A stretch of DNA of 45,509 nt from Veterinaerplatzvirus T145P1. The stretch lies in the sequence record OZ035793.1; one strand, given 5' to 3'. The translations under genes and the position numbers were made by a program. A model generated the notes under the pieces. The model did no database searches, was not told the origin of the DNA, and was given only the letters and a program-made list of their open reading frames with translations. Shown here in pieces: positions 2,624-37,450 of the stretch; the stretch's first letter is position 1; each line of letters opens with the position of its first letter.

Positions 2624-3874
2624 ATGGTAAAGACAGACAGCTACGCCAATATCTTTCTCGGCGGCAGTGATGGTAGTGAGATTTACGGGAGCTTACAGAA
2701 TCAGGAGCCTACAATCCTGGCTTCTCTTTATGCGAATAATGCGCTGGTACGTAGAATTATCGACACAATCCCTGAGACAGCATTAGCGGCAGGATTCCAC
2801 ATTGATGGTATTGATGATGAGCCAGCATTTTGGTCGCGATGGGATGACCTGGAAATGACGCAGAATATTAACGACGCTTGGGCGTGGGCCAGATTGTTCG
2901 GTGGAGCCGCAATTGTCGCTATCGTTAAGGACAATAGAGCACTAACAAGTCCGGTCAGGGAAGGTGCTGAACTTGAAACTGTTAGAGTTTACGACCGCAC
3001 GCAAGTAAAAGTACAAACTCGCGAGGAGAATCCACGTAACGCACGTTTTGGTAAGCCACTAACCTATCGCATCACCACAAATGAGAGCGATATGTTCTAT
3101 GATGTGCACTACAGCCGAATTCACATCATTGACGGAGAGCGAATTCCTAACGTAATGCGTCGGCAAAATGATGGCTGGGGCCGTAGCGTTCTATCCAGTG
3201 ACATTCTTGACTCAATTAAGGATTACACCAACTGTGAACGACTTGCTACGCAGTTACTGAAGCGCAAGCAGCAGGCGGTGTGGAAGGCGAAAGGTCTGGC
3301 TGAGTTATGTGATGATAGCGAAGGATTTGGTGCAGCTCGATTGAGACTTGCACAGGTTGACAACAATAGCGGCGTAGGCCAGGCGATTGGTATCGATGCG
3401 GAATCTGAAGAATACAGCATTCTCAACTCCGATATTGGCGGGATCGATGCGTTCCTGGATAAGAAGTTCGATAGAATCGTTGCCCTGAGCGGTATCCATG
3501 AAATCATCCTGAAAAACAAGAACGTTGGTGGTGTGTCATCAAGCCAGAATACAGCCCTTGAGACATTCCATAAGCTAGTTGACCGCAAACGTAACTCTGA
3601 GTTGCTTCCTATTCTTGGGTTCTTAATCCCGTTCATCGTAAATGTAGAAGAGTGGTCAGTTGAGTTTTATCCTTTAGCTCAGGAATCAAGCAAGGATAAG
3701 GCTGAGATTCTGGAGAAGAACGTAAACAGCATTGCATCACTAATTGCATCTGGCGCTATGAATGCTAACGAGGCACGTGATACACTACGAGCCATCGCAC
3801 CAGAGATTAAGATTGGTGATGGTGATATTGAAGCTCAACAACAAGAAAAATCAGAGGAGGTTGTGATTGCTTAA
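2624..3874 (+). CDS. portal protein (putative)
   Basis: 416 aa ORF directly after terminase and before head genes; RBS ggag; assignment by synteny. Confidence 0.6.
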   Translation: MVKTDSYANIFLGGSDGSEIYGSLQNQEPTILASLYANNALVRRIIDTIPETALAAGFHIDGIDDEPAFWSRWDDLEMTQNINDAWAWARLFGGAAIVAIVKDNRALTSPVREGAELETVRVYDRTQVKVQTREENPRNARFGKPLTYRITTNESDMFYDVHYSRIHIIDGERIPNVMRRQNDGWGRSVLSSDILDSIKDYTNCERLATQLLKRKQQAVWKAKGLAELCDDSEGFGAARLRLAQVDNNSGVGQAIGIDAESEEYSILNSDIGGIDAFLDKKFDRIVALSGIHEIILKNKNVGGVSSSQNTALETFHKLVDRKRNSELLPILGFLIPFIVNVEEWSVEFYPLAQESSKDKAEILEKNVNSIASLIASGAMNANEARDTLRAIAPEIKIGDGDIEAQQQEKSEEVVIA

Positions 3875-8602: not shown

Positions 8603-9259
8603 ATGGCTCATTTATCAAACGGCACTCAGGTGTTCGTAGAAGGCTCTCGCGGTAATGCGATTGACGTAACTGCAATTTCTAACGCAGTTACCCCCGTTTT
8701 AACTGTATCCGACGCTTCTGGTTTGGCCGTTGGTGATTACCTGCTTTTCACCTCTTCTGCCTCTACGCTTCTGGCTGACAAGCAAGTTCGAGTAACTGCA
8801 ATCACTGGTACGTCAGTAACTGTTGAAGGTATTGATACCTCCAGCACCACCAAGTTCCCGGCCGGTTTAACTGGTGAAGTTGTTAAAATCACCTCCTGGT
8901 TCGAAGTTCCGTGTGTTCAGGACGTATCTACTGACGGCGGCGAACAGCAGTTCGTTAACTTCCAATGTCTTTCTGATGACCGCGAGCAGCAGATTCCGAC
9001 TTATAAATCTGCGGTAACAAACACCTTTACCTTTGCTCATGAGTACACTAACCCGGTCTATCCGGTTCTGCGTAACTACGATGAGTCTGGCCAGGTTGTT
9101 GCAATTCGTCTGTTCGTACCTCGCGCCAGCGAAATGCGCTTGCAGTCCGGCACTATCGCTTTCAACGACACCCCTACAATTGGTGTTAATGAAATCGAAA
9201 CGGTATCCATCGCAGTATCCATTCGTGGGCGCCTATCCTCTGTGGCAGCAGAAGTTTAA
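8603..9259 (+). CDS. major tail protein (putative)
   Basis: 218 aa Thr/Val/Ser-rich protein, RBS aaggaaaa, followed by strong terminator 9266-9288; position before chaperone and tape measure. Confidence 0.55.
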   Translation: MAHLSNGTQVFVEGSRGNAIDVTAISNAVTPVLTVSDASGLAVGDYLLFTSSASTLLADKQVRVTAITGTSVTVEGIDTSSTTKFPAGLTGEVVKITSWFEVPCVQDVSTDGGEQQFVNFQCLSDDREQQIPTYKSAVTNTFTFAHEYTNPVYPVLRNYDESGQVVAIRLFVPRASEMRLQSGTIAFNDTPTIGVNEIETVSIAVSIRGRLSSVAAEV

Positions 9260-9265
9260 AGCGCA

Positions 9266-9288
9266 AACCCTCTTCGGAGGGTTTTTTA
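9266..9288 (+). terminator. intrinsic terminator (cUUCGg tetraloop)
   Basis: AACCCTC-ttcg-GAGGGTT plus T6. Confidence 0.75.
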
Positions 9289-9293
9289 TTGCA

Positions 9294-9336
9294 TAGCACT
9301 TTTTGCTAAAGCGGTTATTCAACTTTGCTGTATAGT
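9294..9336 (+). promoter_or_regulatory. composite promoter element
   Basis: ATAGCACTTTTTGCTAAA, 22 bp, TATAGTTA, then CATCGAAACGA leader. Confidence 0.55.
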
Positions 9337-9369
9337 TACCTCATCGAAACGAAATGAGAGATTAAAGAA

Positions 9370-9618
9370 ATGAATAACGTTAAAAACATCATCAAGCTCG
9401 CTGCGGTTCTGTTTGCTTTTTATGCGGTAGTTCAGATTGTAAACCCAACAGGTGAGGCTGATGCCAATAGCAAGGCAAACAAATATACTGTTGAATTTGC
9501 TAAGGATGAGCGAGCATGTCAGGAGCTTGTAGGTGGCAAAGTTGACCAAATCATGAAATACGGCAAAGAGGTTTGTAAGGACTCGGCTGCTAAGATTGCA
9601 AAAGAAAACACTAAGTAA
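9370..9618 (+). CDS. small secreted/membrane-anchored protein (moron)
   Basis: N-terminal hydrophobic signal-like segment, two Cys; own composite promoter element 9294-9336 with CATCGAAACGA leader; inserted between major tail and chaperone genes. Confidence 0.55.
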   Translation: MNNVKNIIKLAAVLFAFYAVVQIVNPTGEADANSKANKYTVEFAKDERACQELVGGKVDQIMKYGKEVCKDSAAKIAKENTK

Positions 9619-9656
9619 TAGAATACATACTCACAAACAATAAGAGGATTAACAAA

Positions 9657-9971
9657 ATGGCAAAGTTCAAACTTTCACTGGCAGCACTCCCAGACTTTAA
9701 GCTACCAGTAAAATTTAAGCTGGCTAACGACCAGGATGTAGAGGTTATCTTTACAGTCAAGCATAAGAAAACATCTGAGTTGCAGGAGCTGCTTAGCAAG
9801 GAAGACTTGAGCACAAAAGAGCTTATTATGGCAATTGCTTCTGATTGGGATCTGGAAGAAGAATACAACGAAGATAACGTTAATGAGTTCTCAGACCTTT
9901 TCCCGGCCTCAACTGTTGCACTGACAACTGCTTACATGCAAGCGCTTGCTGGTCAGCGAGTAAAAAACTAA
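9657..9971 (+). CDS. tail assembly chaperone (lambda gpG-like)
   Basis: 104 aa acidic protein immediately upstream of tape measure; ends in slippery heptamer A_AAA_AAC. Confidence 0.7.
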   Translation: MAKFKLSLAALPDFKLPVKFKLANDQDVEVIFTVKHKKTSELQELLSKEDLSTKELIMAIASDWDLEEEYNEDNVNEFSDLFPASTVALTTAYMQALAGQRVKN

Positions 9972-10291
9972 AACGAGCGGTGTATCTACAGTACCAGTCA
10001 GAGCCAACTGATGCCGAACTGGAAGCTATTGGGATGCGCCGCTCTGATTACGAAGATGAAGAGCCTGAGGTTTTACACTTCGACGACAACATGATGAAGG
10101 CGTGGGACATTTATTGTTCAATGGCTACGCAGTGGAGAGTAGGAGCCAATGGAGCTACAGGGTTAGATTACAACGTGCTAAATTTCCTCTTTAGAGTGTA
10201 TAATGTTTCTGAAGAAGAATTGGTACTCAGCGATTTACGCATCCTTGAAGCTAAGGCTCTTGAGATGATGGATAACCTGAGAAAAAAATAA
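9657..10291 (+). CDS. tail assembly chaperone frameshift fusion (gpGT-like), -1 frameshift at 9962-9968
   Basis: Heptamer a-aaa-aac (9962-9968) lies in the 0 frame just before the stop; the -1 frame is open from 9968 to 10291 and is the same frame as ORF 9980..10291. Confidence 0.6.
9962..9968 (+). other. -1 programmed ribosomal frameshift slippery site A_AAA_AAC
   Basis: Canonical X_XXY_YYZ heptamer in frame with codons AAA AAC, 1 codon before stop of the G-like ORF. Confidence 0.6.
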
Positions 10292-10312
10292 CCCGCTTCG
10301 GCGGGTTTTCTA
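10291..10312 (+). terminator. intrinsic terminator/attenuator
   Basis: ACCCGC-ttcg-GCGGGT plus TTTT. Confidence 0.6.
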
Positions 10313-10326: not shown

Positions 10327-13308
10327 ATGGCAACAAATGAATTAGCCGGAATCACACTAGCCGTAGATGTTTCGCAAGTAGACAGGGGAACGCAATCCCT
10401 GCAAAAGTTCAGACAGGCAAACCAGCAAGCCGCTTCCGGTATTAGTGAATTCGTCAACGCTGAGCAGGTTGCTAAAAACCAGGCGAGAGATACGGCTCGT
10501 GCACTTTCTGAGCAGCAAGCGTCACTAGCTAAATTGCAAACAGCTATCGACCCAACTGCTGCAAAGTTCCGCAAGCTGCAAGAGGCAGCGGTGGGTCTTG
10601 ATAAGGCATTCGCTGCTGGCGTAGTTCCTGACGAGGAATTTTTCCGCTTAGGTGAGGCGCTAGAAACTCAAAACGCAAAACTTGCTCGTTCACGTGCGGC
10701 GCTAACTGAAGAGGGTAGGGCGGCAGCGCAGGCTGCAAAGGATAAGGCAAAAGCAAAGGCTGAAGCGGATAGATTCATTGCATCACTTGAGCGTCAGGCT
10801 CAAGCGGCAACATTGACGCGTGAGGAGTACTTAAAGTTACAAGCGGCCCAGCTTGGCGTTAGTTCTCAGGCAGCACCCATCATTGACAGAATCGCCGACG
10901 CATCACAGAAGGCAAACACCCAGTTAATTGCTCAGAGTAAGGCTTTTCAGAAATCAGGATTAAGCGCCGGGCAATACAAGAATGCCATATCTCAACTACC
11001 AGCGCAGATTACTGATATTGGCACGTCGCTTGCTGGTGGCATTCCGATTTGGCTTATTGCAATTCAGCAAGGTGGGCAGATCAAGGATGCATTTGGCGGC
11101 ATTGGTAACACCTTTAGATTCGCACTTGCAGCCTTAAACCCATTCAATGTAGCTGTTGGTGTTTTGGGTGGGGTACTTGTAGCTCTTGGTGTTGGTGCGG
11201 CTCAGGCTGAAAGTGAATTCAGAGCATTAAACTCTGCCATTGCATTTTCCAACAACTCTACAATCGCATCAATCTCGCAGGTTAGAGAGTTGGTTAGCTC
11301 TGTTTCTGATGCAACAGGTGCCACCAGAGGGCTTGTGACTAGCATCGCAACAAGCCTTATTGAGCAAGGGAACCTTACGCTGACGCAGATTGACAAGATT
11401 ACTAAATCGACCGCAAGATGGGCGCAGTTGACAGGCAAGGATGCGAAGGAAATTACTGGTTACTATAACCAGATTGCGAGCGACCCAATACAGGGATTGG
11501 TTGATTTGGATAAGCGCTTTAACTTCCTCACTCAGGGGCAGTTGACGACAATCGAAAACCTGAGAAAGACAAAGGGAGAGGTCGAGGCCGTTACCGCCGC
11601 AATTGACATTTTCAGCAAGTCGCAGGAAGCAAACCTTAACGACATAGCAGCGCAGTTAACTCCACTTGAGTTAGCCTGGAATGACTTTAGAAAGTACATC
11701 TCTGACATTTGGGATGCAATTAGCCGCAGAACGGTTGGGGCGCTAAACCTGTTTGTTGACGTAATTGCCGGAACAATTGAGCAGATCAGGGTCTTCATTA
11801 ACCAGGGTGACGTACTGATTGGTGAATTCGTAATTAGCGCAACGCAAGCGCTGCAAAACATTCCTGGTCTTGATGGTGTTGGTGATGACGTCATAAAGAG
11901 CCAGCAGAAGATTATCGATGCAGCCAAGAAGCAAAACCTTGAGCTAGAAAAGTCTATCAAGGAGCGCGATGCCAGAATAAGAGAAGGAGAACTTGGTTAC
12001 GTTACTCGCAGAGAAAATCAGAATACCAATGAGCAGTCAGGCACGGATGAGGAGTTTGCAAAAAGGAAGAAGGCGCTTCAGGATGAACTTGATGCGATCA
12101 AGAAGAACAGGAAAGAAGAAAATGGCAGGGTTAAAGAGCAAAGAGACCTTACAATTGGTTACGAATCTGGCGTACTGGCACTTCAGGCTCAACTCAAGGT
12201 TCTTCAGGAAAATAGGGATATTGGCGCAGTAATAAGTAATGAGCGCAAGCAGTATCTTCATGATGAAGCCAAATTCAGGATTCTTGAGCAGAGGCAGCTT
12301 GATGGTTCAATCACCAAAGAGCAGTCAAGACTTCTTCTTGAGAAGGATAAAGTCCTCGAATTGGCAAGGCAGAAGGCTGAACTTGGAGATCAGATTGTTT
12401 TGCAGGAGCGAGCCAATAAGTTAGCTGAAGATAACCGCAAGAAGATTCTTCAGATTAACAACGAAGCAAAAAACATTGATTTGGGGGCTGGTCTATCTTC
12501 TCGTGAACAACAGAGAGCCAAAGAGATTCAGGCTCTTCAGTCCAATCAGGTTAATGCTGGTGGCGCAATTGATGACGTGGATTTTCAGCAGCTTCTCGAG
12601 GCAAGACGTAACTTTTATGCTCAGGAAGATGCGTTACGTGAAAACTGGCTTGCTGGTGTGAACCAATCCTTTGCTAATTGGGCTGAGAGCGCGACGGATG
12701 CATTCTCAATTGCTGGAAGTTTAACCACCACAGTATTTGAAGGCATTACTGACCAGATTACTGACCTTGTAACAACTGGTGAAACTAACTTCAGAGAGTT
12801 CACTGTTAACATCCTTAAACAGATTGCTAAGATTGCGGCTCAGCTTCTTATTGTTAAGGCTATCGAGTCTAGTTTAAGTAGCTTTGGTGGTACTGGTGGC
12901 GCGATTGGCTCTATCGCATCTGCGATTGGTGGTGGATTCGCTAACGGTGGTTATACTGGTAATGGAGGGAAATACCAACCAGCAGGAACCGTACACCGTG
13001 GTGAGTTTGTATTCACAAAAGAAGCAACTAGTCGAATCGGTGTTAAGAACCTTTACGCTCTAATGAAAGGTTACGCAAACGGTGGTGTCGTTGGTGGTCC
13101 CTCTGGCTATGCAAATGGTGGCTTGGTTTCTGGAGGCACAGATGTTAATGTTAGTGGAATTACGGTTAACGTTAATAGTGGAATTGGAAGTGACCCAGAG
13201 CAGGCCAAGGCGCTGCAAAATGGCGTTAAGGCAATTGTAGCTGAAGAGATTTCTCAGTCTTTCCAGCAGGGTGGCAGAGCTTATCAGTACCTGCGCGGAT
13301 TTAACTAA
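10327..13308 (+). CDS. tail tape measure protein
   Basis: 993 aa, long Ala/Gln/Glu-rich coiled-coil N-terminal half, Gly-rich C-terminus; position after G/GT. Confidence 0.85.
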   Translation: MATNELAGITLAVDVSQVDRGTQSLQKFRQANQQAASGISEFVNAEQVAKNQARDTARALSEQQASLAKLQTAIDPTAAKFRKLQEAAVGLDKAFAAGVVPDEEFFRLGEALETQNAKLARSRAALTEEGRAAAQAAKDKAKAKAEADRFIASLERQAQAATLTREEYLKLQAAQLGVSSQAAPIIDRIADASQKANTQLIAQSKAFQKSGLSAGQYKNAISQLPAQITDIGTSLAGGIPIWLIAIQQGGQIKDAFGGIGNTFRFALAALNPFNVAVGVLGGVLVALGVGAAQAESEFRALNSAIAFSNNSTIASISQVRELVSSVSDATGATRGLVTSIATSLIEQGNLTLTQIDKITKSTARWAQLTGKDAKEITGYYNQIASDPIQGLVDLDKRFNFLTQGQLTTIENLRKTKGEVEAVTAAIDIFSKSQEANLNDIAAQLTPLELAWNDFRKYISDIWDAISRRTVGALNLFVDVIAGTIEQIRVFINQGDVLIGEFVISATQALQNIPGLDGVGDDVIKSQQKIIDAAKKQNLELEKSIKERDARIREGELGYVTRRENQNTNEQSGTDEEFAKRKKALQDELDAIKKNRKEENGRVKEQRDLTIGYESGVLALQAQLKVLQENRDIGAVISNERKQYLHDEAKFRILEQRQLDGSITKEQSRLLLEKDKVLELARQKAELGDQIVLQERANKLAEDNRKKILQINNEAKNIDLGAGLSSREQQRAKEIQALQSNQVNAGGAIDDVDFQQLLEARRNFYAQEDALRENWLAGVNQSFANWAESATDAFSIAGSLTTTVFEGITDQITDLVTTGETNFREFTVNILKQIAKIAAQLLIVKAIESSLSSFGGTGGAIGSIASAIGGGFANGGYTGNGGKYQPAGTVHRGEFVFTKEATSRIGVKNLYALMKGYANGGVVGGPSGYANGGLVSGGTDVNVSGITVNVNSGIGSDPEQAKALQNGVKAIVAEEISQSFQQGGRAYQYLRGFN

Positions 13309-18800: not shown

Positions 18801-19271
18801 GTACAGTATGGGATTAGTCTTGGCCTGAAATACAACGGACAGACTTATTCATCCGGCATGAGTATGGAGCTTGTTGGCACTGGTGGGAATGTTCGCAGTC
18901 AGTTCATCTTTGACGCAAACAGATTCGCAATCAGTAACGGCATTGGTTCTGGTTCCGGTCAGTGGCAACTCCCATTCGTTGTAGAGAATGGAAACGTAAT
19001 AATCCAAAGCGCAGTAATCGGCGATGGCTCAATTACTAACGCTAAGATTGGTAATATAATTTCATCAAATGATTATGTGGCAGGCTCTCAGGGATGGGCG
19101 ATACTGAAAAGTGGTGCGTCAGAGTTCAATAACACAACTGTAAGGGGCAATCTTTACGCTAACAATGGTAACTTTGCTTTTAACGGAACCAATAACACGG
19201 TTCAGATTAACAATAACGGAATCACTGTAAACTTACCGAACGGAGGAAGAGTGGTAGTTGGAGTGTGGTAA
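15846..19271 (+). CDS. central tail fiber / host specificity protein (lambda gpJ-like)
   Basis: 1141 aa; recalled similarity to lambda J in the region VPTNYDPETRTYSGTWNGLFKMAWSNNPAWVLYDL...CDQMVPDGKGGLEPRY; start may instead be ATG 15885. Confidence 0.85.
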   Translation: MAQMIKTNMRLCDMAEDIKIYGAKGGSQKQHQPVEQEDNLISLNKVKVLLAVADGEVDPNFSMKDLYLADVPVQNQDGSYNYDGVRAEFRAGTQYQDYIAGLDGANSEIQASREIKNDTPYIIAVNNTQLSAIRVKLFWPRLVKQENNGDLNGTTCEYAIDLSVNGGAYQEYTRGVANGKTTTGYDRSIRVNLPAEFDSALVRIRKITADSTSSTLVNGMQITTYQEVIDAKFRYPLTALVYVEFGSDLFPNGIPTISIKKRWKLIQVPTNYDPETRTYSGTWNGLFKMAWSNNPAWVLYDLVTNRRYGLDQRELGVEIDKWGLYEAAQFCDQMVPDGKGGLEPRYLCDMVVQNKVEAYTLIRDICSIFRGLTFYDGEKIGIVVDKPRNPSYIFTNDNVVNGLFSRTFASDKSLYTTANVQFDDVENNYQQDVEPVFELEATRRFGFNPVDLTAIGCTRRSEANRRGRWLLKTNLRSETISFTTGLEGMIPMIGEVIAVNDAAWSSNYQLNLSGRIESVQGLQVFTPFKVDAAPGDRILLNKPDGSPEARTIASVSEDGRTINLNTAFSFVAQPDTVFAIDKDNLALQQYVVTGIQKADSDGSDSFQYTITAVEYDPNKYDEIDYGVNIVDRPTSIVEPDRLSPPENLTVSSYSKVVQGLSVETMVIGWDKAPYAKTYNVQWRKENGNWINVPRTASTEVDIEGIYAGIYDVRVRSVSDTENVSAWSGIVTVSLTGKIGRPSAPTVITASTDEVFGIRVKWGFPEGSGDTAYTELQQVPDNGDGTYNPDNASLLTLLPYPAYEYWHTPIQPGKVIWYRARLIDRIGNTSDWSYFARGMSTDDANIINDYIKVDIEGSEGFKYLEQNAIQKNQDIQNQAEAIIENALANDGDVRRMTKENGKRKAEYVQAVNLIADETQARVEALTQLKAQIDDEVVSSITEVQTALATETEARTTADTALSARLGENEAALNQKLDAFSNATSTGVQYGISLGLKYNGQTYSSGMSMELVGTGGNVRSQFIFDANRFAISNGIGSGSGQWQLPFVVENGNVIIQSAVIGDGSITNAKIGNIISSNDYVAGSQGWAILKSGASEFNNTTVRGNLYANNGNFAFNGTNNTVQINNNGITVNLPNGGRVVVGVW

Positions 19272-19278: not shown

Positions 19279-19304
19279 AGCCCCTTAATTGGGGCTTTTC
19301 TTTT
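19279..19304. terminator. bidirectional intrinsic terminator
   Basis: AGCCCC-ttaatt-GGGGCT flanked by A-rich (5') and T-rich (3') tracts, between convergent genes. Confidence 0.7.
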
Positions 19305-20274
19305 AGTAGAAGTTTGGGATAAATGGAAGTGCCATTGATATGTTCGTGTCGAAAGGAAACTGAGCGCCTGTCTGAGTTGAGTAGTTACCTATTACAGATC
19401 CAGGAACAGCCCTAACGGAGCCTCCAGACATGCAAACACCCTTGTATCGTAAGTTGTTATACCCTCCGGTAACTCTAGTTGTAGCGCCGCACCTAAGCAG
19501 CGGGAAGAAACCACCATTTATTGACTGATATCCATTGCTTATTTGTATAAATCCACCAAGAACGAATGGGCGGCGAACACTTGAAAAAACAATCTGACCA
19601 GAACTATTTGACATTGTGAGTCCAGGCCCGGCCGGTGGTGGTTCATTCCTGAATATCACCAGCTGAACATGGGTACTTGCCGCAACATCATCTGTACCTC
19701 CGTAGGTTATATCCCTACACCATATTGTTGATCCATCTGATTCAAGTGATACGTTTGGATTATCCCACTTGCCGAATGGTATTCCGCTAACTGGTAGCGA
19801 TGCTGCACCGTTAACCTGTATGCCCCCAACCCAGGCCGCAGACATTAGCCGCGAGTTGCTTGATATAGCAAGGAAATCAGTTGAGTTCTCAACAAGTATT
19901 CCAGGACTTGATGAGGATGAAGCCGGTAGTATCTCAAAGCAATTACCAGCAAAGTCAATTATTCGACCATTAGCACCATTGAAGTTGCTGATAGTTATCC
20001 TGCCAGTTCCGTCATTTACCTTTTGAAACCCGTTCATGTAATAAACTTCGGGTATAACATCGTAAGCGTCAACGTGGACTGCCTTCGTTGGTAGGCAGAA
20101 AGCCGTAGAGCCAGGAAACATTGTCAATCCAAAATCCCACGAGATTGCCGGGGTTGAAAGTCCATTGGTATTTATTGATCCAGTCACAGCAGGTGCCCTT
20201 AATCCTGCCGTGATTTCCATCGCTGGTCTTCCGTCATTGAGGTCAATCAATATACCCTGCGGCATTATTTCCAC
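19303..20274 (-). CDS. hypothetical protein, possibly tail-fiber/receptor-associated
   Basis: 323 aa Gly/Ser/Asn-rich; convergent with J, co-oriented and overlapping with upstream lipoprotein gene. Confidence 0.5.
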
Positions 20275-20510
20275 TCCTTACTGCCGTGATCTGCAACAGA
20301 ACCGCCGTAACCGCCGCCAGATTTGCTTTCAATGCCAGCGTAGCGAATATCAACCTCACCAGCCGGAACAACTACACCGCCTTTCCACTTAGCTACGCAC
20401 ACGCCGTTTGCTTGTGTTGCACACCACCCATCAGGTCGAGGACCAGAAGAACAACCTACTGTCATGATTACTGCCGCCGAGATGATTGCTGATTTGATGA
20501 AGTTAGTCAT
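20265..20510 (-). CDS. lipoprotein (candidate Cor/Llp-like superinfection exclusion protein)
   Basis: Start trimmed to ATG 20510 (RBS aaggaa); signal peptide with lipobox VGCSS; small size and position near tail fiber genes. Confidence 0.55.
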
Positions 20511-20690
20511 TTTGTATTCCTTATTAAGTTGTTTCGTTTTGATGTAGTAATAATACAACCGTCAGTGCGGAATGTCTTTAGCTATTCGTGCTATTGCATA
20601 CACGTAACCGATGTAACTCGATGTATACAATCTCATCCGCGGAAAATGATATACGCACTGTTACGCAAATTTACGCATTGGTTACATTAA

Positions 20691-24100: not shown

Positions 24101-26683
24101 TTAACCTATTTTAGTGTAAGTCCATTGGTATGTTGCAGCTCCCTTGGCAGTTATCCCGACAGTTCTTCCACTTACATCCATTGAAGTGAAAGCGCCAGTT
24201 TTTGTAATTGTTATTGATGATGTGGAACCATCAAAAAGTACGTCAGCAATTACACTATAGTTAGGTCCAGCACCAGTAACCCAGGTCGAAACCTTGTATA
24301 AACCAGCGTTGTTTGGCAACTCAAAAAGACCAGTTGAAACATTCGCCTGAACAGCCATCGCGCCCTTTCCGGTGTACACACCGTCAGTTTTAAGACCTAA
24401 TGATGAATATGTTTGCTTATAGCCACCAATGATGGCACCACCCATAGGTTCAGTAAACCAGTTCACATTACCCTGACTAACAACAGATATCGCTGGAGAC
24501 CCCCCTTTAGCTGACTGAAACCTACCGCTTAAAATGTCAATTCTAGATGCTGAGTCCTGGGCGTAGATAGTTACAGGATACCCACCAGAACCAGTGTAAA
24601 CCAAGCCGTTATCATTAATGTCATCTTCAGACGAGTCAATGATTACATGGGAAGTTCCAGACGCCTTGATGAACGAAACAACACCGCTAGAACCAGCACC
24701 TGTTGTTCTAACTTCATTCTTCCATGATGTTAGGCCTGAAATTCTGCCATTTGAGTTATTAAACCTAATCAGGCAACAATCTTGCGATCCGTTGGTGTCA
24801 ATAATGTTACCTTCAACGTCCATCCCTAGTATGTTTACGCTATGGCTGTTGATGAAGTTAATCCCAGCACCACCGTAAGAACCAGATGTTGATGATATAT
24901 TACTGGCATCCATTGCGCAGTTAATCATTGTAACGCTCATTACCGAACCAAATTCATAAGGTGAAATGCAATCTGATGCGTAACAAGTCTCAAGCAATAT
25001 TGTCGTTCCTGTCGCCTTTATGAATCCAGTCCTGCAATTCCTGGCCCAAACATTCTGTAGCTTAGTCTGGTATGTTCCAGTGGTGTCCGTGTAGCAACCC
25101 CATGCTCCATGGACTGTGCAATCTTTGATACATGAATTTTCTAGCCCTGTTGCAGAACCAACATTAGAAACGAAGTTAAATGCTATCTTTTGATCATTCC
25201 CTGATGCTGAGGTAGGTGTAGTGCCTGGGTTATAAAAAATGTAAAGTCCCTCAATAAACACTTGATACATTCTTATGTTTTGCGCATCACCCTGAACCAG
25301 GGCGAATAGGTTTATGTTCCCATCAACTGAGATAAATGTTTGCGCCCTGTTAATTTGGTTTGTTCCCTCGCCAATAATTCTTGTACTGTTGCCAATCCTC
25401 ACCGTCCTGTTAATGAACATAAAACCTTTTGGTATGTATACAGTTTTACCGGTATTAACTGCCGCCTGAAGCGCAACTGCGTCAAGTGACTCGTTAAGGT
25501 TTGATGCAAATGGATAAACAAACCGCGCATCCTCAATTGTCGAGAATTTAGATGAAAGAGGAACTAAAGTACCATTGTTTGTAGCACCAAAATCCATGAC
25601 GTTAACAAAGTCACCAAGTTTACTATCCTTACTCCTTTCTACAAATGAGGCCAATGTAGATTTGTAATTCATCGAACTGAATTGTGATTTAGCCTCTGTC
25701 TTTGAATAAACATCTGATCTTGGGTAAACCTCTGATTTTGAATAAACATCAAGCAAACCCCTAGCTCTTTCAGCAGTAGCGCCGCCAACCGACTTCCCGC
25801 CTTCAACCATAATGTATTCGCGTAAGTAGAAGTTTCTTGATCCTTTAGCGCCCGTCATCCTGAGGTGAGTAGCCCTATATGATGAATCAGAATTCAATGC
25901 CGGATATATATCAATCTCATAAGAGCCTTGAGCTCCACTTGTGCCCCTAACACATATAAAAAGCGTAGCGTTGGCTGTAGTGTATGTCGCAGCTAGTGAT
26001 GCTGGAACGTTTGTCATGCTAGATACTACAACTCGATAATTACCACCACTTTTAAATTCAACTTGCTGCCAATCCAATGATGGCATAGCTATTGTCGATG
26101 TGCTTGCGATACCCTCATTGGCTAGAGTAACCAAAGTTGCAGCATCACCAGCGTTGGCAATGACATTAACTGTGTTGTTGTATGCCTCCTGCGCACTACT
26201 TGCGCTTGATTCAGCCTGAGCCTTGCTTGTAGCGGCAGCTTGCTGGCTGGCAGATGCAGCCGATTCGCTTGAAGCCGCATTTGTTTCGCTTGCCTTCGCC
26301 TCATCAACTAATCGTTGTAACTTATCGAAATCAAAATCACCAGATTCAGCCAACTCAACAAGTGACGCAACCTCAGTTTCACGTGACTGATAGTAACGAA
26401 GAGTTTCCGCAACATCCTGAGCTAGCCCCTGAACGGTAATTCCATCATGCGCAAGGATAGCGTAACCAGTTCCAGCAGGAACAGTTTCGGAGTTAGGGTT
26501 GTAAACATTAATCTGCGTATCGCTGATAATTTCTGAGATGGTGTAAATCTGTACTGGTTCAGTTTTAAATACAATGGTTGCACCTACGCGAATCAGTGTA
26601 AGAGGTGCTTTCCATGTTGTCCCGACGCCAGTCACCTCACCACTTGCTGCTAGAGAAGCTGTTCCTGAGTCATAAATTGCCAT
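24101..26683 (-). CDS. tailspike / tail fiber with beta-helix depolymerase-like domain
   Basis: Start trimmed to ATG 26683 (RBS ggag); N-terminal anchor domain, Ser/Ala-rich linker, long Gly/Asn/Thr/Ser-rich repetitive region typical of right-handed beta-helix. Confidence 0.65.
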   Translation of the reverse strand: MAIYDSGTASLAASGEVTGVGTTWKAPLTLIRVGATIVFKTEPVQIYTISEIISDTQINVYNPNSETVPAGTGYAILAHDGITVQGLAQDVAETLRYYQSRETEVASLVELAESGDFDFDKLQRLVDEAKASETNAASSESAASASQQAAATSKAQAESSASSAQEAYNNTVNVIANAGDAATLVTLANEGIASTSTIAMPSLDWQQVEFKSGGNYRVVVSSMTNVPASLAATYTTANATLFICVRGTSGAQGSYEIDIYPALNSDSSYRATHLRMTGAKGSRNFYLREYIMVEGGKSVGGATAERARGLLDVYSKSEVYPRSDVYSKTEAKSQFSSMNYKSTLASFVERSKDSKLGDFVNVMDFGATNNGTLVPLSSKFSTIEDARFVYPFASNLNESLDAVALQAAVNTGKTVYIPKGFMFINRTVRIGNSTRIIGEGTNQINRAQTFISVDGNINLFALVQGDAQNIRMYQVFIEGLYIFYNPGTTPTSASGNDQKIAFNFVSNVGSATGLENSCIKDCTVHGAWGCYTDTTGTYQTKLQNVWARNCRTGFIKATGTTILLETCYASDCISPYEFGSVMSVTMINCAMDASNISSTSGSYGGAGINFINSHSVNILGMDVEGNIIDTNGSQDCCLIRFNNSNGRISGLTSWKNEVRTTGAGSSGVVSFIKASGTSHVIIDSSEDDINDNGLVYTGSGGYPVTIYAQDSASRIDILSGRFQSAKGGSPAISVVSQGNVNWFTEPMGGAIIGGYKQTYSSLGLKTDGVYTGKGAMAVQANVSTGLFELPNNAGLYKVSTWVTGAGPNYSVIADVLFDGSTSSITITKTGAFTSMDVSGRTVGITAKGAATYQWTYTKIG

Positions 26684-26705
26684 TGTGTAGAGTCTCCATT
26701 TGTAA

Positions 26706-26725
26706 AATAGCACGAATTGCTAAAG
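26706..26725. promoter_or_regulatory. palindrome copy AATAGCACGAATTGCTAAAG without + strand -10
   Basis: Lies between the primase terminator and the tailspike start on the - strand; - strand TACAAT at 26729-26734. Confidence 0.4.
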
Positions 26726-26749
26726 TGGATTGTAGCATCTTTGAGTCAT

Positions 26750-26770
26750 AAAAAAACCTCCCGAAGGAGG
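26750..26770 (-). terminator. intrinsic terminator after primase gene
   Basis: - strand CCTCC-ttcg-GGAGG plus T7. Confidence 0.7.
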
Positions 26771-27697
26771 TTAGTCTAGTAATTCGCTCGCCTTGTATAT
26801 TCGCTTTCTTATTCCTGATTTGAAGTGGTTATCATTATTTGGCATTACAACATCAAGATTGCGATCGTCAGCAACGGCGAGTAAATCAAAATCGCTGCGA
26901 GTACAAGCGATGCGTAACTTGTAGTTTCTAAGCGCGTAAGCAACCATTTCCATGTTGTAACTGGAGTGGCAAACAAGCACACAGCGGTTCCCAGTAGCAA
27001 TGTGAACGCGATAGCCATCAATGAAATTATCGACCAGATAAGCGTACTCATCATCCTTAAAGGAACCAATAACAGAAACAGACTGGCGAGAATAATCTTT
27101 TGCAGCATAACTAACATCTCCCTCCTCATTGATAAACATTACATTGCACATCTCTTCTGATATGCCGTCACTATAAGCCATAAAGCACGGAACTGCGTGG
27201 ATTAATTCACCTGATTTCGTCCTGCCAACATCAAAACCGAACTCGCTATAGATACCCTCGTATGTACTGAGAGGAGTTGATTCTACTCTTTCCGTCCTTT
27301 CCATTATCTCTAAGCATCTTTCGTGATCAATCTGAGCGCCCATTTTGTATGGTGATGTTCTTGAAGCTCTTTTGTTTGCTTTTGATATAACCTCTACTGG
27401 AACGAGATTCAGCCAATCACCAAGCGTATCTATTGTTTCACTATAACTCATTCCAGAACACTTCATTACCCAACCAACACCAGAATCATTTCCACACTGG
27501 TTGCATATTGCTGCGCCATTTCCCTTTTCTTGACCTAACTCATCAGTGAAGCGAAACCTATCCTTGCCAAAGCAGTAAGGGCACGGACCATGTTTCTTGC
27601 TGAGATTCTCCTTTGTCCATCCAAGATGCGATGAGTAGAACTCACTCCACATCCCTTTCATCTTGGCTATCACTTCGTTCTTATCATGGTGACTCAT
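26771..27697 (-). CDS. DNA primase (zinc-binding, putative)
   Basis: Start trimmed to ATG 27697 (RBS ggagg); CPYC...CNQC zinc-ribbon near N-terminus; followed by intrinsic terminator. Confidence 0.6.
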   Translation of the reverse strand: MSHHDKNEVIAKMKGMWSEFYSSHLGWTKENLSKKHGPCPYCFGKDRFRFTDELGQEKGNGAAICNQCGNDSGVGWVMKCSGMSYSETIDTLGDWLNLVPVEVISKANKRASRTSPYKMGAQIDHERCLEIMERTERVESTPLSTYEGIYSEFGFDVGRTKSGELIHAVPCFMAYSDGISEEMCNVMFINEEGDVSYAAKDYSRQSVSVIGSFKDDEYAYLVDNFIDGYRVHIATGNRCVLVCHSSYNMEMVAYALRNYKLRIACTRSDFDLLAVADDRNLDVVMPNNDNHFKSGIRKRIYKASELLD

Positions 27698-27752
27698 AAT
27701 TACCTCCATAAACAATAAAGGCACTATACATAATGCAAAGTGCCATTGTTTA

Positions 27753-28232
27753 TCAAATCGTGCTGTTTTGCTCTTTCTTCTTTTGGTTCTCTAATTTTAT
27801 CTTGCGCCATGAACGACACTCTGGCTTAGTGGCTAATTCAGCCTCAGTGACGACTCGCAGCATATGGCGCTTTTTGCACCGAAGTGTCAGCGGTTTCCCG
27901 TTGCCGTCGAATTGCAGGTCTGGTCGGCAGAATGTAGCGCGAAAACCTTCTCCATTTCGCTTATAGTAGTTGTGAGAAAGTTGAGCCCCACGCGCAGAAA
28001 TCATACCGCGCTTAAACCATTCTTCTACAGCCTGTGGTGTTACCTTTAACTGCTTTGCGATATTCGCCTTTGTGCCGAAGAAATCAAGAACTATCTCTAG
28101 CCGCGCGCGTAGCCCGGCTCTTACTTCATCTTTTAAAACATAGTAGCCTGAAGGTCGTTTACGTTGCTTTTTGTCTTCGGTGCGGATGGTTCCGTTATTG
28201 CCGTTAATTGTTCGCTTGTCGACTGTATTCAT
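27753..28232 (-). CDS. helix-turn-helix DNA-binding protein (candidate transcription regulator)
   Basis: Basic 159 aa protein with HTH-like segment KANIAKQLKVTPQAVEEWFKRG; first gene of the - strand operon, next to divergent promoters. Confidence 0.5.
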   Translation of the reverse strand: MNTVDKRTINGNNGTIRTEDKKQRKRPSGYYVLKDEVRAGLRARLEIVLDFFGTKANIAKQLKVTPQAVEEWFKRGMISARGAQLSHNYYKRNGEGFRATFCRPDLQFDGNGKPLTLRCKKRHMLRVVTEAELATKPECRSWRKIKLENQKKKEQNSTI

Positions 28233-28243
28233 TTCATTACCTC

Positions 28244-28288
28244 AATAGCATTTTTTGTTAAAAGTCATCCTGATTTGATGGTATCATT
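28244..28288 (+). promoter_or_regulatory. composite promoter element (helicase operon)
   Basis: AATAGCATTTTTTGTTAAAA then about 22 bp to ATCATT. Confidence 0.45.
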
Positions 28289-34204: not shown

Positions 34205-34283
34205 ATGCTTCTTTTCCGAGCATGGCTCCTGTATCATGTTTACACTAACTTAAACATTGACAAATAAATAAATGGAGGATCAC

Positions 34284-34499
34284 ATGAGGGAAGTAATCAA
34301 CGCCGCTACGGCGTCAACTGGAGGGGCAGCGGTAACTGGAGCGGCAACTGGTCAGATGACTATAGCAATAATCAGCCTTATCGCTTTAATCATTTTTGGT
34401 GCGTGGGGTGCTTACTGGAAGTTTAAGGATAGCCAGGCGATTCGGCGCGCTCTTGAATCAGGAGACTTAAAAACAGCAATCAAGATAAGGAGTAAGTAA
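34284..34499 (+). CDS. holin (single-TMD, pinholin-like)
   Basis: Start at second Met of MEDHM dual-start motif behind RBS ggagga; one hydrophobic helix and charged C-terminus; directly upstream of SAR endolysin. Confidence 0.6.
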   Translation: MREVINAATASTGGAAVTGAATGQMTIAIISLIALIIFGAWGAYWKFKDSQAIRRALESGDLKTAIKIRSK

Positions 34500-34985
34500 A
34501 TGAAGCAGAAGCTGCTAATTAGCGCGGCTACGGCTGCGGCAATATACATCGCAGCGCCGCTTATTGAGCTCGTTGAGGGTGTGGAGAACAAGCCTTACAT
34601 GGACATTGCCGGAATCCCTACAGTTTGTTCTGGTATTACTGGTCCTGACGTTGTTTGGGGTAAGACTTACAGCAATAGTGAGTGCCGGAACCTGCTGGAG
34701 AAGCACATCCAGATTCATGGTAAGTATGTTCAGGATGCAGTTACCTACCCAATTGCACCACAGACAAGAGCTGCATTAATCAGCTTTAGCTATAACGTTG
34801 GCGGCAATGCAATGAGGAAGTCTACCGCTGTAAGGCTAATCAACCAGGGTAAAGTTGAGAAGGGTTGCAACGCTCTCGGGATGTGGAACAAAGCAAGAGT
34901 TAACGGAAAGCTGAAGGTAGTTAAAGGCTTGGTGAATCGCAGGAATGAGGAGATTAAGTTATGTTTAAGTGGATTGCAGCGTTAG
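34500..34985 (+). CDS. SAR endolysin (lysozyme-like muramidase)
   Basis: Gly/Ala-rich N-terminal signal-anchor-release segment followed by E-x8-D-x5-T catalytic spacing (ELVEGVENKPYMDIAGIPT). Confidence 0.8.
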   Translation: MKQKLLISAATAAAIYIAAPLIELVEGVENKPYMDIAGIPTVCSGITGPDVVWGKTYSNSECRNLLEKHIQIHGKYVQDAVTYPIAPQTRAALISFSYNVGGNAMRKSTAVRLINQGKVEKGCNALGMWNKARVNGKLKVVKGLVNRRNEEIKLCLSGLQR

Positions 34986-35350
34986 TAGTGTGCGTAGCTT
35001 TATCTGGATGTTCGGCAACTGATGCACTGACTGGATTGATTGGAAGCAAGCCGGAAGTTACAGCTCAGGCCGGGGCTGAGAACAACAAGGTTGGCGTTGG
35101 GTTAACGAATAAGGTCGATTCCAGCAGCTCCAGTGAAGCCACGGTTAAAGATTCTAAAGTTGGGTCACTTGATAGCTCAAGCGGGAAAAAGACTGCTGAC
35201 AACTCGATTAAGGCATCTACAATCACTGCCGAAAAGATTGAGATTACCAACAACGACTCATCCGCGCCTCCATGGATTGTAATGGGAGCTATGGGGTTGC
35301 TGTTTTTTGTTCCACTTACCGCAATCTTAAGACGCAAAAAAGCCTCCTAA
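34961..35350 (+). CDS. unimolecular spanin (u-spanin, T1 gp11-like architecture)
   Basis: N-terminal lipobox LSGC, Ser-rich periplasmic segment and C-terminal TMD followed by RRKK; overlaps endolysin 3' end. Confidence 0.7.
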   Translation: MFKWIAALVVCVALSGCSATDALTGLIGSKPEVTAQAGAENNKVGVGLTNKVDSSSSSEATVKDSKVGSLDSSSGKKTADNSIKASTITAEKIEITNNDSSAPPWIVMGAMGLLFFVPLTAILRRKKAS

Positions 35351-37376: not shown

Positions 37377-37406
37377 TACTTCTCTCCGTGTTGTTTCTGA
37401 GCGGCC

Positions 37407-37450
37407 ATTATAACAACGACCGCTTATAAAGCATTATCAATTTGTGCTAT
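37407..37450 (-). promoter_or_regulatory. composite promoter element (- strand, ATPase gene)
   Basis: - strand ATAGCACAAATTGATAA, 22 bp, TATAAT with -10 inside hairpin AGCGG...CCGCT. Confidence 0.5.

Follow-up and report, generated by a model that had tools for sequence, protein, structure and literature searches.

What an 82-codon open reading frame is doing between two tail genes, and what drives its transcription, is the question raised by positions 9,294 to 9,618 of Veterinaerplatzvirus T145P1. The window analyzed here is the whole of sequence record OZ035793.1 (45,509 nt), the complete genome of a T1-like, Rtp-like coliphage of the Drexlerviridae (Braunvirinae). T1-like phages commonly contaminate laboratories and fermentations and have also been considered for therapy. 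For the most part, neither their transcription signals nor their small accessory genes have been characterized, and this locus offers a compact and testable case. An initial annotation of the sequence had proposed a small secreted protein, encoded by a moron-like insertion and driven by an early-type promoter of its own instead of by the late operon. The explanation that in our judgment accounts best for the locus, and that we hold with slightly better than even confidence, is an accessory-gene cassette that occupies a cargo slot among the clustered tail genes of T1-family phages of the Rtp-like group (Braunvirinae).

The slot is bounded upstream by the gene for the major tail (tube) protein (8603 to 9259, plus strand; PF08813, E = 6e-68; PHROG 584) and downstream by that for a tail assembly chaperone (9657 to 9971, plus strand; PF08748, E = 6e-33), after which come a second chaperone open reading frame (9980 to 10291, plus strand) and the tape measure gene (10327 to 13308, plus strand). 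Six nucleotides past the stop of the major tail protein begins an intrinsic terminator (9265 to 9290, plus strand) with an 8-bp stem, a UUCG loop, and a T-run; as resolved by a terminator scan, its hairpin at 9265 to 9284 reads AAACCCTC-TTCG-GAGGGTTT and is followed by TTTTTTAT. The terminator has a folding energy of −12.1 kcal/mol (z = −2.8 against shuffles) and is identical in sequence across eight aligned relatives. Between it and the chaperone gene lies, as annotated initially, an open reading frame of 82 amino acids with an ATG start (9370 to 9618, plus strand), here called ORF82, which stops 38 nt before the chaperone gene. An Rfam scan of the whole genome returned only a tRNA, at 45152 to 45225.

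Codon-level comparison indicates that ORF82 is a genuine conserved gene under purifying selection. Its dN/dS against six relatives is 0.04 to 0.25, with dS up to saturation; its length and frame are kept, and 27 residues are invariant in a 29-sequence alignment. On the same dN/dS values, an antisense open reading frame at 9319 to 9549 (minus strand) was taken to be spurious. ORF82 is present in 81 phage records, each either from a coliphage of its own clade or with a mislabeled host, and is annotated there as “hypothetical protein” save for two evidently erroneous labels. Among the PHROGs it matches only its own family, 22925, for which no function is described. Family searches gave no match in Pfam (0 families at E ≤ 1), NCBIfam, or PADLOC, a search of PDB sequences with a profile gave 0 matches at E ≤ 10, and an exhaustive search of the same kind over 1.84 billion representative proteins recovered only ORF82’s own cluster, together with two spurious matches to long proteins (E about 8e-4). 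By these searches, ORF82 appears to be without a homolog outside its own clade.

The hydrophobic, signal-like N-terminal segment and the two cysteines of the initial annotation are both present. Codons 1 to 32 (9370 to 9465, plus strand) specify a signal-peptide-like or signal-anchor N terminus, MNNVKNIIK / LAAVLFAFYAVVQIV / NPTGEADA, in which an n-region with K5 and K9 precedes a 15-residue h-region (L10 to V24; mean Kyte-Doolittle value, 2.46), an invariant N-P-T-G turn, and an A-x-A site (A30-D31-A32), with putative cleavage after A32. Codons 33 to 82 (9466 to 9615, plus strand) specify a helical domain of 50 amino acids, basic (pI about 9) and presumably periplasmic, with C50 and C69, which are invariant in 35 distinct homologs; invariant cysteines are confined to this C-terminal domain. 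The first cysteine of ORF82 is C50, and we found no L-x-x-C lipobox and no match to PF24052 or LPAM; the missing lipobox rules out a lipoprotein. Export of ORF82 is plausible given this architecture. AlphaFold2 modeled the full-length protein from 29 sequences as one long helix that keeps the cysteines apart (pLDDT, 62), with a helix at residues 2 to 24 and then a break, at low confidence, and the mature domain alone as four short helices (pLDDT, 67). A Foldseek search of these low-confidence models against the PDB gave 0 matches.

The topology may be either cleaved or anchored. Conservation is higher over the N-terminal 24 residues than over the mature part (entropy, 0.38 versus 0.68), which would be unusual for a cleaved signal peptide, and an alternative that we regard as possible but tentative is that ORF82 is an uncleaved bitopic inner-membrane protein (N-in, C-out) whose transmembrane helix is itself functional and which, like HK97 gp15, disturbs formation of the DNA-entry channel or an inner-membrane host protein, and not a soluble secreted protein. 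In favor of this reading, the N terminus is the most conserved part of the protein, polar Y18, Q22, and N25-P26 included; the hydrophobic stretch from I7 to V24 is long enough for a membrane span, the homolog in ACG-M12 has E at position −3 and so lacks a good −3 residue, and HK97 gp15 is built alike, with a transmembrane segment at its N terminus and a short polar tail. The conservation around A32 argues in the other direction, with A, T, S, or V at −3 in 35/35 homologs, A at −1 in 34/35, and −2 free, a pattern typically seen at signal peptidase I sites, and a 15-residue h-region followed by an N-P-T-G turn is likewise typical of a signal peptide.

The comparison with HK97 gp15 extends beyond topology. 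This moron product is a small, YebO-like inner-membrane protein for superinfection exclusion, encoded in the tail operon, that blocks DNA entry (PMC3594210). At 62 aa, compared with 82 aa for ORF82, it likewise combines an N-terminal hydrophobic helix with a short polar tail, and its gene, like ORF82, is an extra one in a siphophage tail cluster, near the chaperone and tape measure genes, that is missing in related phages (PMC3594210). The gp15 gene lies between the chaperone and tape measure genes; ORF82 lies one gene earlier. HK97 gp15 has its own terminator and no cysteines and is expressed from the prophage, whereas ORF82 comes from a virulent phage, lacks a terminator, and has an A-x-A site along with two invariant cysteines. 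BLASTP gave no alignment of ORF82 with HK97 gp15 at E ≤ 100, and there was no YebO Pfam match.

Upstream of ORF82, and directly behind the tail-tube terminator, we found a conserved composite unit. It opens with a 21-nt repeat, gcATAGCACtttTTGCTAAAG (9291 to 9311, plus strand), that contains the palindrome TAGCA-N5-TGCTA (9294 to 9308). A 22-nt spacer (9309 to 9330, plus strand) separates the TTGCTA of the repeat (9303 to 9308) from the −10 element; the AAG that makes up the first 3 nt of the spacer overlaps the end of the repeat. The −10 element, TATAGT (9331 to 9336, plus strand), matches TATAAT at 5/6 positions, and 5 nt past it lies the CA-rich leader that the initial annotation had pointed out, CATCGAAACGA (9342 to 9352, plus strand), which does stand in a composite unit with the repeat and TATAGT. 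Alignment of relatives gives a footprint: 18/21 positions of the repeat are identical in all eight orthologous slots (differences fall at 9291 to 9292, 9295, and 9306), the −10 element is invariant, and the spacer is mostly variable, with conservation limited to its last ~5 nt, TGCTG. Transcription would start at about 9343, which would place the palindrome center (9301) at about −42. A weak Shine-Dalgarno-like GAGAGA (9356 to 9361, plus strand) lies 8 nt upstream of the ATG, and the 5′ region from 9343 to 9420 is unusually unstructured, with an RNA folding z score of +2.5 and less structure than all 200 shuffles.

Both parts of the unit recur across the genome far more often than expected. 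With two or fewer mismatches, the repeat has 20 genome copies against 0.57 expected; the leader has six exact copies and one with a single mismatch against 0.77 expected, a count of seven that was reached by 0/100 shuffles. Each of the seven leader copies stands within a copy of the same larger unit, which consists of aaTAGCACnnnTTGCTAAAg, 22 to 23 nt, a TATAGT-like −10 element, 5 nt, and the leader. There are 18 such promoter-like units in the genome. The distance from repeat to −10 element is 22 nt in 14/18, the distance from leader to −10 element is fixed, and the leader lies 20 to 40 nt from the start codon in 16/18 (the remaining two have 147 and 205 nt).

The unit is not a canonical sigma-70 promoter. 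No −35 hexamer occurs 16 to 18 nt before TATAGT, where the sequence reads AAAGCG, and a scan with the sigma-70 consensus made no call at the unit ahead of ORF82. TTGCTA of the repeat stands 22 nt from the −10 element, a spacing seen in 14/18 units that rules it out as a −35 box. An independent, conserved promoter-like unit does lie behind a strong terminator, without the form of a canonical sigma-70 promoter. It belongs to the genome-wide family, shows a phylogenetic footprint, and may be a promoter of ORF82’s own.

The repeat itself has been described. A 21-nt direct repeat, aaATAGCACnnnTTGnTAAAA, was reported for T1-like phages (TLS, T1, Rtp, and Rogue1), oriented along the direction of transcription and about 76 nt upstream of start codons; the TLS paper left its function open among a stoperator, an enhancer site, and an UP-like element (PMC11447400). 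gcATAGCACtttTTGCTAAAG at 9291 to 9311 matches this repeat and starts 79 nt upstream of the ORF82 start codon (9370). The fixed 22-nt distance to the −10 element and the CATCGAAACGA leader are documented here and are not part of the TLS paper’s description of the repeat (PMC11447400). Our literature search on T1-family promoters and transcriptomes returned only that description and no expression data for a T1-like phage.

The genes headed by the unit bear on the timing proposed in the initial annotation. One copy heads the holin/endolysin cassette (33892, plus strand; lysis genes, 34272 to 35350), one heads the pair that encodes an Rtp44-like receptor-binding protein and an Rtp45-like exclusion lipoprotein (20593, minus strand), and one heads the gene between terminase and portal (2117, plus strand); others precede replication genes and small genes whose products are undescribed, and a copy of the repeat lies 14 nt upstream of the start of a gene for a Cro-like regulator. 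The label “early-type” was a guess from position and is not established, the 18 units including those at the head of lysis and receptor-binding/exclusion genes. The late operon may also contribute to ORF82 expression through read-through of the terminator.

At its 3′ end, the ORF82 unit is open, because no terminator precedes the chaperone gene: the terminator scan of 9619 to 9656 found no hairpin and no T-run. Transcripts from the ORF82 promoter would continue into the chaperone genes. The next terminator-like hairpin downstream lies at 10290 to 10307 (plus strand), past the second chaperone open reading frame. On the plus strand it is followed by TTCTATTATG, with no clean T-run, the T-run being that of the opposite strand; phage CEB_EC3a has an annotated terminator at the corresponding position, and this hairpin is likely the end point of transcripts begun at 9343.

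This arrangement raises a reading that we regard as unlikely, namely, that the promoter serves mainly to reinitiate transcription of the downstream tail genes (the chaperones, the tape measure, and beyond) after the tail-tube terminator, with ORF82 as a passenger of minor or conditional role. The lack of a terminator between ORF82 and the chaperone gene, with the next terminator-like hairpin at 10290 to 10307, would fit it, as would the description of the T1-family late region as a chain of terminator-bounded modules (PMC11447400). However, T1 and the Sd1-like loci, which have no cargo gene, have no forward promoter of the unit type in their gap, and their tail genes are still expressed; promoter and cargo always occur together among the slot records listed, where no slot with a promoter alone was found; and ORF82 itself is under clear purifying selection. 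Moreover, the chaperone gene has a separate candidate, a sigma-70-like TTGCAA, 17 nt, TAGAAT (9596 to 9624, plus strand) that spans the ORF82 stop codon. It is a possible but weak promoter for that gene, its 9/12 consensus match being of a kind not enriched over shuffles; its hexamers and spacing are retained in relatives at 50 to 60% identity, and its equivalent in CEB_EC3a is annotated as a promoter. Under the cassette explanation that we prefer, the ORF82 promoter may serve the downstream tail genes too, as the cassette has no terminator.

Related phages show what else the slot can hold. In T1, the major tail protein gene, terminator, and chaperone gene follow one another with a gap of 113 nt and no open reading frame; the terminator is thus there even though the cargo is not. 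The gap is 72 nt, again with no cargo gene, in the Sd1-like loci (L018 to L023). Up to the ATG, the terminator, promoter, and leader of Rtp and MM01 are the same as here, but their cargo is the lipoprotein gene rtp34. In Rtp, the product is a predicted lipoprotein of 128 aa with an LLAGC lipobox; its gene takes up exactly this slot, and the terminator, promoter, and 5′ untranslated region (UTR) ahead of it are the same, with few substitutions before the start codon; the leader stretch is kept right up to the ATG even though the cargo differs. The protein is unrelated to ORF82 and has a lipobox signal peptide, which makes it an alternative cargo and not a homolog. We found no paper that mentions rtp34, while work on Rtp45 and LptDE was found. 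The slot of Rao1 carries an additional 46-aa open reading frame for a two-helix membrane protein, and the slot span of CY1 (934 nt) is consistent with the Rao1 arrangement. Among the matches listed (87 whole-slot records), slots span about 770 nt with ORF82, 889 to 890 nt with rtp34, and 934 nt in CY1; pattern scans of IMG/VR and metagenome contigs revealed no further cargo types beyond the ORF82- and rtp34-type slots. As read from these alignments, phages that differ in cargo retain the promoter-like unit and UTR as far as the start codon, and all cargos seen in the slot are predicted to be envelope targeted.

These comparisons bear out the suggestion of a moron-like insertion. Morons in the sense of Juhala and Hendrix, as set out in PMC3594210, are extra genes between genes that are adjacent in relatives, with a promoter and a terminator of their own, a base composition unlike that of the genes around them, and expression from a repressed prophage. 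ORF82 is such an extra gene relative to T1 and the Sd1-like loci, and Rtp and MM01 carry another cargo behind the same promoter. ORF82 has no downstream terminator of its own, the next terminator-like hairpin being that at 10290 to 10307, and prophage expression is inapplicable here because T1-like phages are described as virulent (PMC11447400, PMC7718038). The GC content of the cassette is 0.38 to 0.41, versus 0.48 to 0.50 for the tail-tube gene and 0.40 for the adjacent chaperone gene; because it equals that of the chaperone gene, base composition gives no clear sign of foreign origin.

Taken as an accessory cassette, the locus would work as follows. Host RNA polymerase would start near 9343, using the −10 element and the repeat at about −42; the repeat could be the site of a dimeric helix-turn-helix protein, with the Cro-like regulator encoded at 27753 to 28232 as a candidate, or an UP-like element. 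Transcripts would run through ORF82 into the chaperone genes. Sec would insert the protein with its N terminus in and its C terminus out, after which it would be cleaved after A32 or left anchored, a C50-C69 disulfide would staple the 50-residue basic helical domain in the periplasm, and ORF82 would act on the envelope of the infected cell.

As to what it does there, superinfection exclusion is a guess by analogy. Rtp45, T5 Llp, and T1 Cor are small, exported, envelope-acting proteins of virulent T1- and T5-like phages, as ORF82 is proposed to be, and the Rtp45 homolog in this genome has a promoter of the same type. Unlike these lipoproteins with their lipobox cysteine, ORF82 has its first cysteine only at residue 50, and a direct comparison of ORF82 with T1 Cor showed no similarity, with no PF24052 match. 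T4 Imm and Spackle (Sp), from a virulent phage, are small proteins of the membrane or periplasm and act after adsorption, blocking DNA entry or the tail lysozyme; this is a step of the kind proposed for ORF82, which has no sequence or family match to them. The genome’s receptor-masking lipoprotein is 74% identical to the structurally characterized exclusion lipoprotein Rtp45, and to judge from its Rtp44- and Rtp45-like proteins the clade uses LptD. Because a receptor-masking lipoprotein is already encoded, ORF82, if it is an exclusion factor, would have to act at another step. The likeliest single role, though one that we hold at well below even odds, is that at the periplasm or the inner membrane it blocks superinfecting relatives in a step of entry that follows adsorption; it would then parallel HK97 gp15 and T4 Imm and Sp and complement the Rtp45-like lipoprotein that masks LptD.

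Two other roles at the envelope have less in their favor. We consider it rather improbable that ORF82 counters or modifies a host envelope function other than superinfection, such as an envelope defense, a periplasmic protease or nuclease, or LPS/Lpt processes linked to LptD. The predicted envelope targeting and the clade’s inferred use of LptD are compatible with such a role, and the faster divergence of the C-terminal domain relative to the N terminus would fit an arms race, but dN/dS is well below 1 and no known antidefense or defense family was matched. More improbable still is a lysis-timing factor, either an antiholin-like periplasmic sensor built like T4 RI or a modulator of the pinholin/SAR-endolysin system. 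ORF82, from a virulent phage, is small, basic, and helical and is predicted to be exported or anchored, and the lysis cassette is headed by the same promoter type; however, ORF82 is remote from the lysis genes, most Drexlerviridae that share the lysis module do not have it, its h-region is not rich in Gly, Ala, and Ser, unlike SAR domains, and it has no similarity to known lysis protein families. That ORF82 is nonfunctional and the region regulatory DNA only, as its small size and its “hypothetical protein” annotations might suggest, is effectively refuted by its dN/dS, its saturated synonymous divergence, its kept length and frame, and its invariant residues.

A bolder joint proposal, to which we give only a low probability, is that the slot is an exchange site, where a fixed terminator-promoter-5′ UTR “landing pad” receives interchangeable envelope effectors; that ORF82 represents a new family of periplasmic or inner-membrane proteins that keep the DNA of superinfecting T1-like phages from entering, a second exclusion layer behind the LptD-masking lipoprotein; and that the repeat is the operator of the Cro-like regulator, at about −42 on some 18 promoters, and sets the entire nonstructural transcription program.

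For the T1 family, the locus presents one conserved promoter and 5′ UTR with three different cargos, predicted to be envelope targeted, in otherwise collinear genomes. Should ORF82 show no phenotype, it would be one more small hypothetical phage gene. If it blocks entry or alters the envelope, it would found a new family, for exclusion or host modulation, among phages whose receptor is the essential LptD. The 18 near-identical units provide a handle on the transcription organization of the T1 family, a question that the TLS authors left open.

The complete genomes named Veterinaerplatzvirus T145P1 are collinear with the 45.5-kb window at 97 to 98% identity, and other coliphages of the Braunvirinae (Drexlerviridae, T1-like) are 87 to 93% identical to it. 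In the tail gene cluster, the major tail protein (tail-tube) gene (8603-9259; PF08813) is followed, six bases past its stop codon, by a terminator (9265-9290) with an 8-bp stem, a UUCG loop, and a T-run (−12.1 kcal/mol; folding-energy z = −2.8). Downstream lie an 82-codon ORF, here ORF82 (9370-9618, ATG start codon), the tail assembly chaperone gene (9657-9971; PF08748), a second chaperone ORF (9980-10291; DUF1799), and the tape measure protein gene (10327-13308). The initial annotation had proposed a promoter and leader behind the tail-tube terminator, and we find both in the slot between the tail-tube and chaperone genes: the leader CATCGAAACGA, at 9342-9352, is part of a unit common to seven sites. 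Elsewhere in the window, a tRNA gene (45152-45225, plus strand; Rfam RF00005, 66 bits) casts doubt on a mechanically called 75-aa ORF (45199-45426), whose start it overlaps.

The leader occurs in the window in six exact copies and one with a single mismatch (0.77 expected), and alignment of these seven sites revealed a larger unit comprising aaTAGCACnnnTTGCTAAAg, a spacer, a TATAGT-like hexamer, 5 nt, and the leader. With up to two mismatches allowed, the upstream repeat is present in 20 copies (0.57 expected), 18 of which precede a hexamer that matches TATAAT at five or six of six positions. Repeat and hexamer are separated by 22 nt in 14 of the 18 units and by 21 or 23 nt in four, a CA-rich leader lies 5 nt past the hexamer in most, and all are followed by an ORF, whose start is 20 to 40 nt past the leader in 16. 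The same repeat, −10, and leader architecture is found throughout the phage T1 genome. The repeat has been published: the TLS re-annotation reports 21 copies of a 21-nt direct repeat, aaATAGCACnnnTTGnTAAAA, that are oriented with transcription and lie about 76 nt ahead of start codons. For this repeat, also present in T1, Rtp, and Rogue1, a stoperator, an enhancer site, or an UP-like element was considered; only three sigma-70-type intergenic promoters are reported there (PMC11447400). The addition made here is the geometry that ties the repeat to the promoter.

No −35 hexamer is present in the slot unit at 16 to 18 nt from the −10, and the TTGCTA of the repeat was ruled out as one because 22 nt is too far. 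The repeat holds a palindrome, TAGCA-N5-TGCTA, centered at 9301 in the slot copy, which, given the −10 at 9331-9336 and a putative start near 9343, would lie at about −42. Class II activators work from approximately this position, as lambda cI does at PRM; a repressor there would occlude polymerase and is equally compatible with the placement of the repeat. A gene for a Cro-like helix-turn-helix regulator (27753-28232, minus strand; PHROG 2856, with PF14549 below threshold), 52% identical to T1 gp23, is the obvious candidate for a repeat-binding protein because a repeat copy adjoins its start codon, 14 nt upstream (27753-28262). This copy also heads the divergent helicase gene (28334-30328), and its placement would allow autoregulation. 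Another copy (26708-26760, plus strand), between the tail fiber gene (24101-26713, minus strand) and the primase gene (26771-27724), has no usable −10 and directly precedes a terminator hairpin, an arrangement that T1 shares at 34903 and that suggests a promoter-independent role for the repeat as well. In the units at 37400-37449 (minus strand), 41234-41290 (plus strand), and 42771-42815 (plus strand), an inverted repeat encloses the spacer or the −10 (the latter, for example, in AAGGCCA...TATAGT...GGCCTT, about 41258-41283), and the spacer of the 42771 unit holds a hairpin (CCCGCtcctGCGGGtttt) that is apparently the upstream gene's terminator. Promoter and terminator seem to be interleaved.

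Most of the 18 units are in the non-structural half of the genome, which makes the label "early-type" understandable. Units also head the Erf recombinase, primase, and two helicase genes. The unit at 33892 (plus strand) heads a cassette ending in holin, endolysin, and spanin; that at 20593 (minus strand; leader CATCAAAACGA) heads genes for an Rtp45-like lipoprotein and an Rtp44-like receptor-binding protein; and that at 2117 (plus strand) heads an extra gene between terminase and portal. Because units stand at lysis, receptor-binding, and recombination/replication genes, they mark no single temporal class and are instead the putative promoter type that the phage uses for everything beyond its long structural operon. 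The designation "early-type" given to the slot promoter is thus not established. Transcriptome or transcription start site data were not found in the literature for any T1-like phage.

We aligned the slot from tail-tube stop to chaperone start in eight phages whose ORF82 proteins are 49 to 95% identical. No position differs in the terminator, in TCATCGAAA-GAAATGA, or in the −10 and its 5′ flank (CTGTATAGTT). The repeat (ATAGCACTTTTTGnTAAAG) is nearly invariant, showing one A-to-G change in phage 26174I, and variation is unconstrained over about 17 nt of the spacer. The predicted 5′ untranslated region (UTR) of ORF82 is less structured than 200 of 200 shuffles (z = +2.5). Within the conserved 5′ UTR (9353-9369), a three-codon mini-ORF, ATG AGA GAT TAA (9354-9365), ends 4 nt before the ORF82 start codon. 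Most relatives, Rtp among them, retain this mini-ORF, which lacks its own Shine-Dalgarno sequence and so is probably not translated.

Phage T1 has only tail-tube gene, terminator, and chaperone gene, with no ORF in the 113-nt gap, and the gap in six Sd1-like genomes is 72 nt, with no repeat. The T1 gap holds only an inverted repeat copy (18835-18849, minus strand; TAGCACTTTTTGTTA, 22 nt, TAAGAT) that points back at the tail-tube gene and may act as an antisense promoter or simply bind a regulator. In Rtp, the same terminator, repeat, −10, leader, and UTR are conserved to the start codon with few substitutions (−10 TATATT, leader TATCGAAACGA), and the cargo differs: rtp34, a 128-aa protein with an LLAGC lipobox, also the slot gene of MM01. 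Rao1 carries between slot promoter and ORF82 homologue an extra 46-aa ORF (1342-1482; PHROG 16572, unknown function) with two hydrophobic helices (MILIGMLTAFFYYATGLTFWVSLGAAIGAYFVSALLALIVIALRNR); the slot span of CY1 fits this arrangement, and no such ORF is annotated in CY1. A chimeric query joining the promoter region to the chaperone gene found the whole slot in 87 phage records, with spans among those listed of approximately 770 nt (769 to 773; ORF82), 889 to 890 nt (rtp34), and 934 nt (CY1). None of the matches listed was a promoter-only slot, and pattern scans of IMG/VR and metagenomes yielded no further cargo type. Judged by this comparison across phages, the slot is confined to Rtp-like phages, where promoter and cargo occur jointly, and all three kinds of cargo are predicted to be envelope targeted.

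In the classical sense (PMC3594210), a moron is a gene added between two that neighbor each other in related phages, and it brings a promoter and a terminator of its own and an atypical base composition. ORF82 is inserted between such genes and has a predicted promoter of its own; its composition is ambiguous, and no terminator lies between it and 10290-10307. "Moron-like" is a fair description. Because no terminator separates ORF82 from the chaperone genes, transcripts from the slot promoter should continue into them, and the promoter may therefore serve to boost tail-gene transcription. The ORF82 stop codon lies within a weak sigma-70-like candidate (TTGCAA, 17 nt, TAGAAT; 9596-9624) that distant relatives retain. 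A more complete moron-like cassette (2117-2612) lies between the large terminase (554-2119) and portal (2624-3874) genes. Its repeat (2117-2133) overlaps the terminase stop codon and is followed by TATAGT, a 124-aa cysteine-rich ORF (2191-2565; PHROG 14592, "virion structural protein," no Pfam match), and its own terminator (about 2589-2612); in T1, only a terminator separates terminase from portal.

Purifying selection (dN/dS of 0.04 to 0.25 against six relatives, with synonymous divergence up to saturation) and a frame and length kept in all homologues except that of ACG-M12 (a six-residue N-terminal insertion) indicate that ORF82 is a real gene. As initially described, its product (MNNVKNIIK-LAAVLFAFYAVVQIV-NPTGEADA-NSK...) has a hydrophobic N terminus and two cysteines, residues 50 and 69. 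Y18, C50, and C69 are invariant in both protein alignments, as are N25, P26, and N33 among 35 distinct homologues (82 or 83 residues; ACG-M12 left out). ORF82 had no match in Pfam, NCBIfam, or PADLOC and matched only its own unknown-function family in PHROGs; its profile matched no PDB sequence, its HMM retrieved only its own cluster from 1.84 billion representative proteins searched exhaustively, and Foldseek with weak AlphaFold2 models (pLDDT 62 and 67) found nothing. The 81 phage records found by tblastn, at identities down to about 50%, are coliphages of the phage's own clade or evidently host-mislabelled, and by these searches the family is an uncharacterized orphan confined to one phage clade. 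Near-identical genomes or proteins deposited as "Pseudomonas phage PsgS01F," "Campylobacter phage A110b," and a Nitratidesulfovibrio protein (PP134917.1, MG065688.1, and protein P0036) are most likely coliphage contaminants or have mislabelled hosts.

The N terminus of ORF82 carries two lysines, a 15-residue hydrophobic stretch (mean hydropathy 2.46), and an invariant N-P turn, ending in A-x-A. Position −3 is A, T, S, or V in all 35 homologues, −1 is A in 34, and −2 is free, a pattern resembling that of signal peptidase I sites. Counting against simple signal-peptide cleavage are the conservation of residues 1 to 24, which exceeds that of the remainder (entropy, 0.38 versus 0.68; dN in distant pairs, 0.18 versus 0.55), and the E at −3 in the ACG-M12 homologue. 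The charge distribution favors a topology with the N terminus in and the C terminus out, and the C-terminal domain, which holds the only cysteines, fits a predicted oxidized periplasmic location.

By position and build, the nearest precedent is HK97 gp15, a 62-aa moron product with an N-terminal transmembrane helix, encoded between chaperone and tape measure genes. Once inserted in the inner membrane, gp15 keeps the DNA of HK97-like phages from entering the cell (PMC3594210); ORF82 has no sequence similarity to it. The phage also encodes a lipoprotein 74% identical to Rtp45 (20265-20510, minus strand; PF24052) and a DUF6453 protein 39% identical to the Rtp44 receptor-binding protein (19303-20274, minus strand), in adjoining genes under one promoter-like unit (19303-20593), so its receptor is probably LptD. 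Rtp45 binds the periplasmic face of LptDE, as seen by cryo-EM, and prevents attachment of the receptor-binding protein (bioRxiv 10.1101/2025.07.07.663478). With an Rtp45-like protein already encoded, ORF82 must act at another step if it is an exclusion factor, as had been suggested; the most plausible would be DNA entry, with ORF82 acting at the inner membrane or in the periplasm, a tentative reading drawn by analogy. It may instead be a lysis-timing factor or an unrelated envelope or anti-defense factor. Membership in the Cor/Llp/Rtp45 receptor-masking lipoprotein family is excluded, as ORF82 lacks a lipobox and does not show similarity to Cor.

The initial interpretation thus stands for an independent promoter-like unit, a moron-like insertion, and a small protein predicted to be exported, but neither "early" nor "exclusion" is established. 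The locus is best described as a predicted accessory envelope protein in a tail-operon slot; its interest is moderate and lies chiefly in how readily it could be tested, given that different cargos can sit behind one conserved landing pad.
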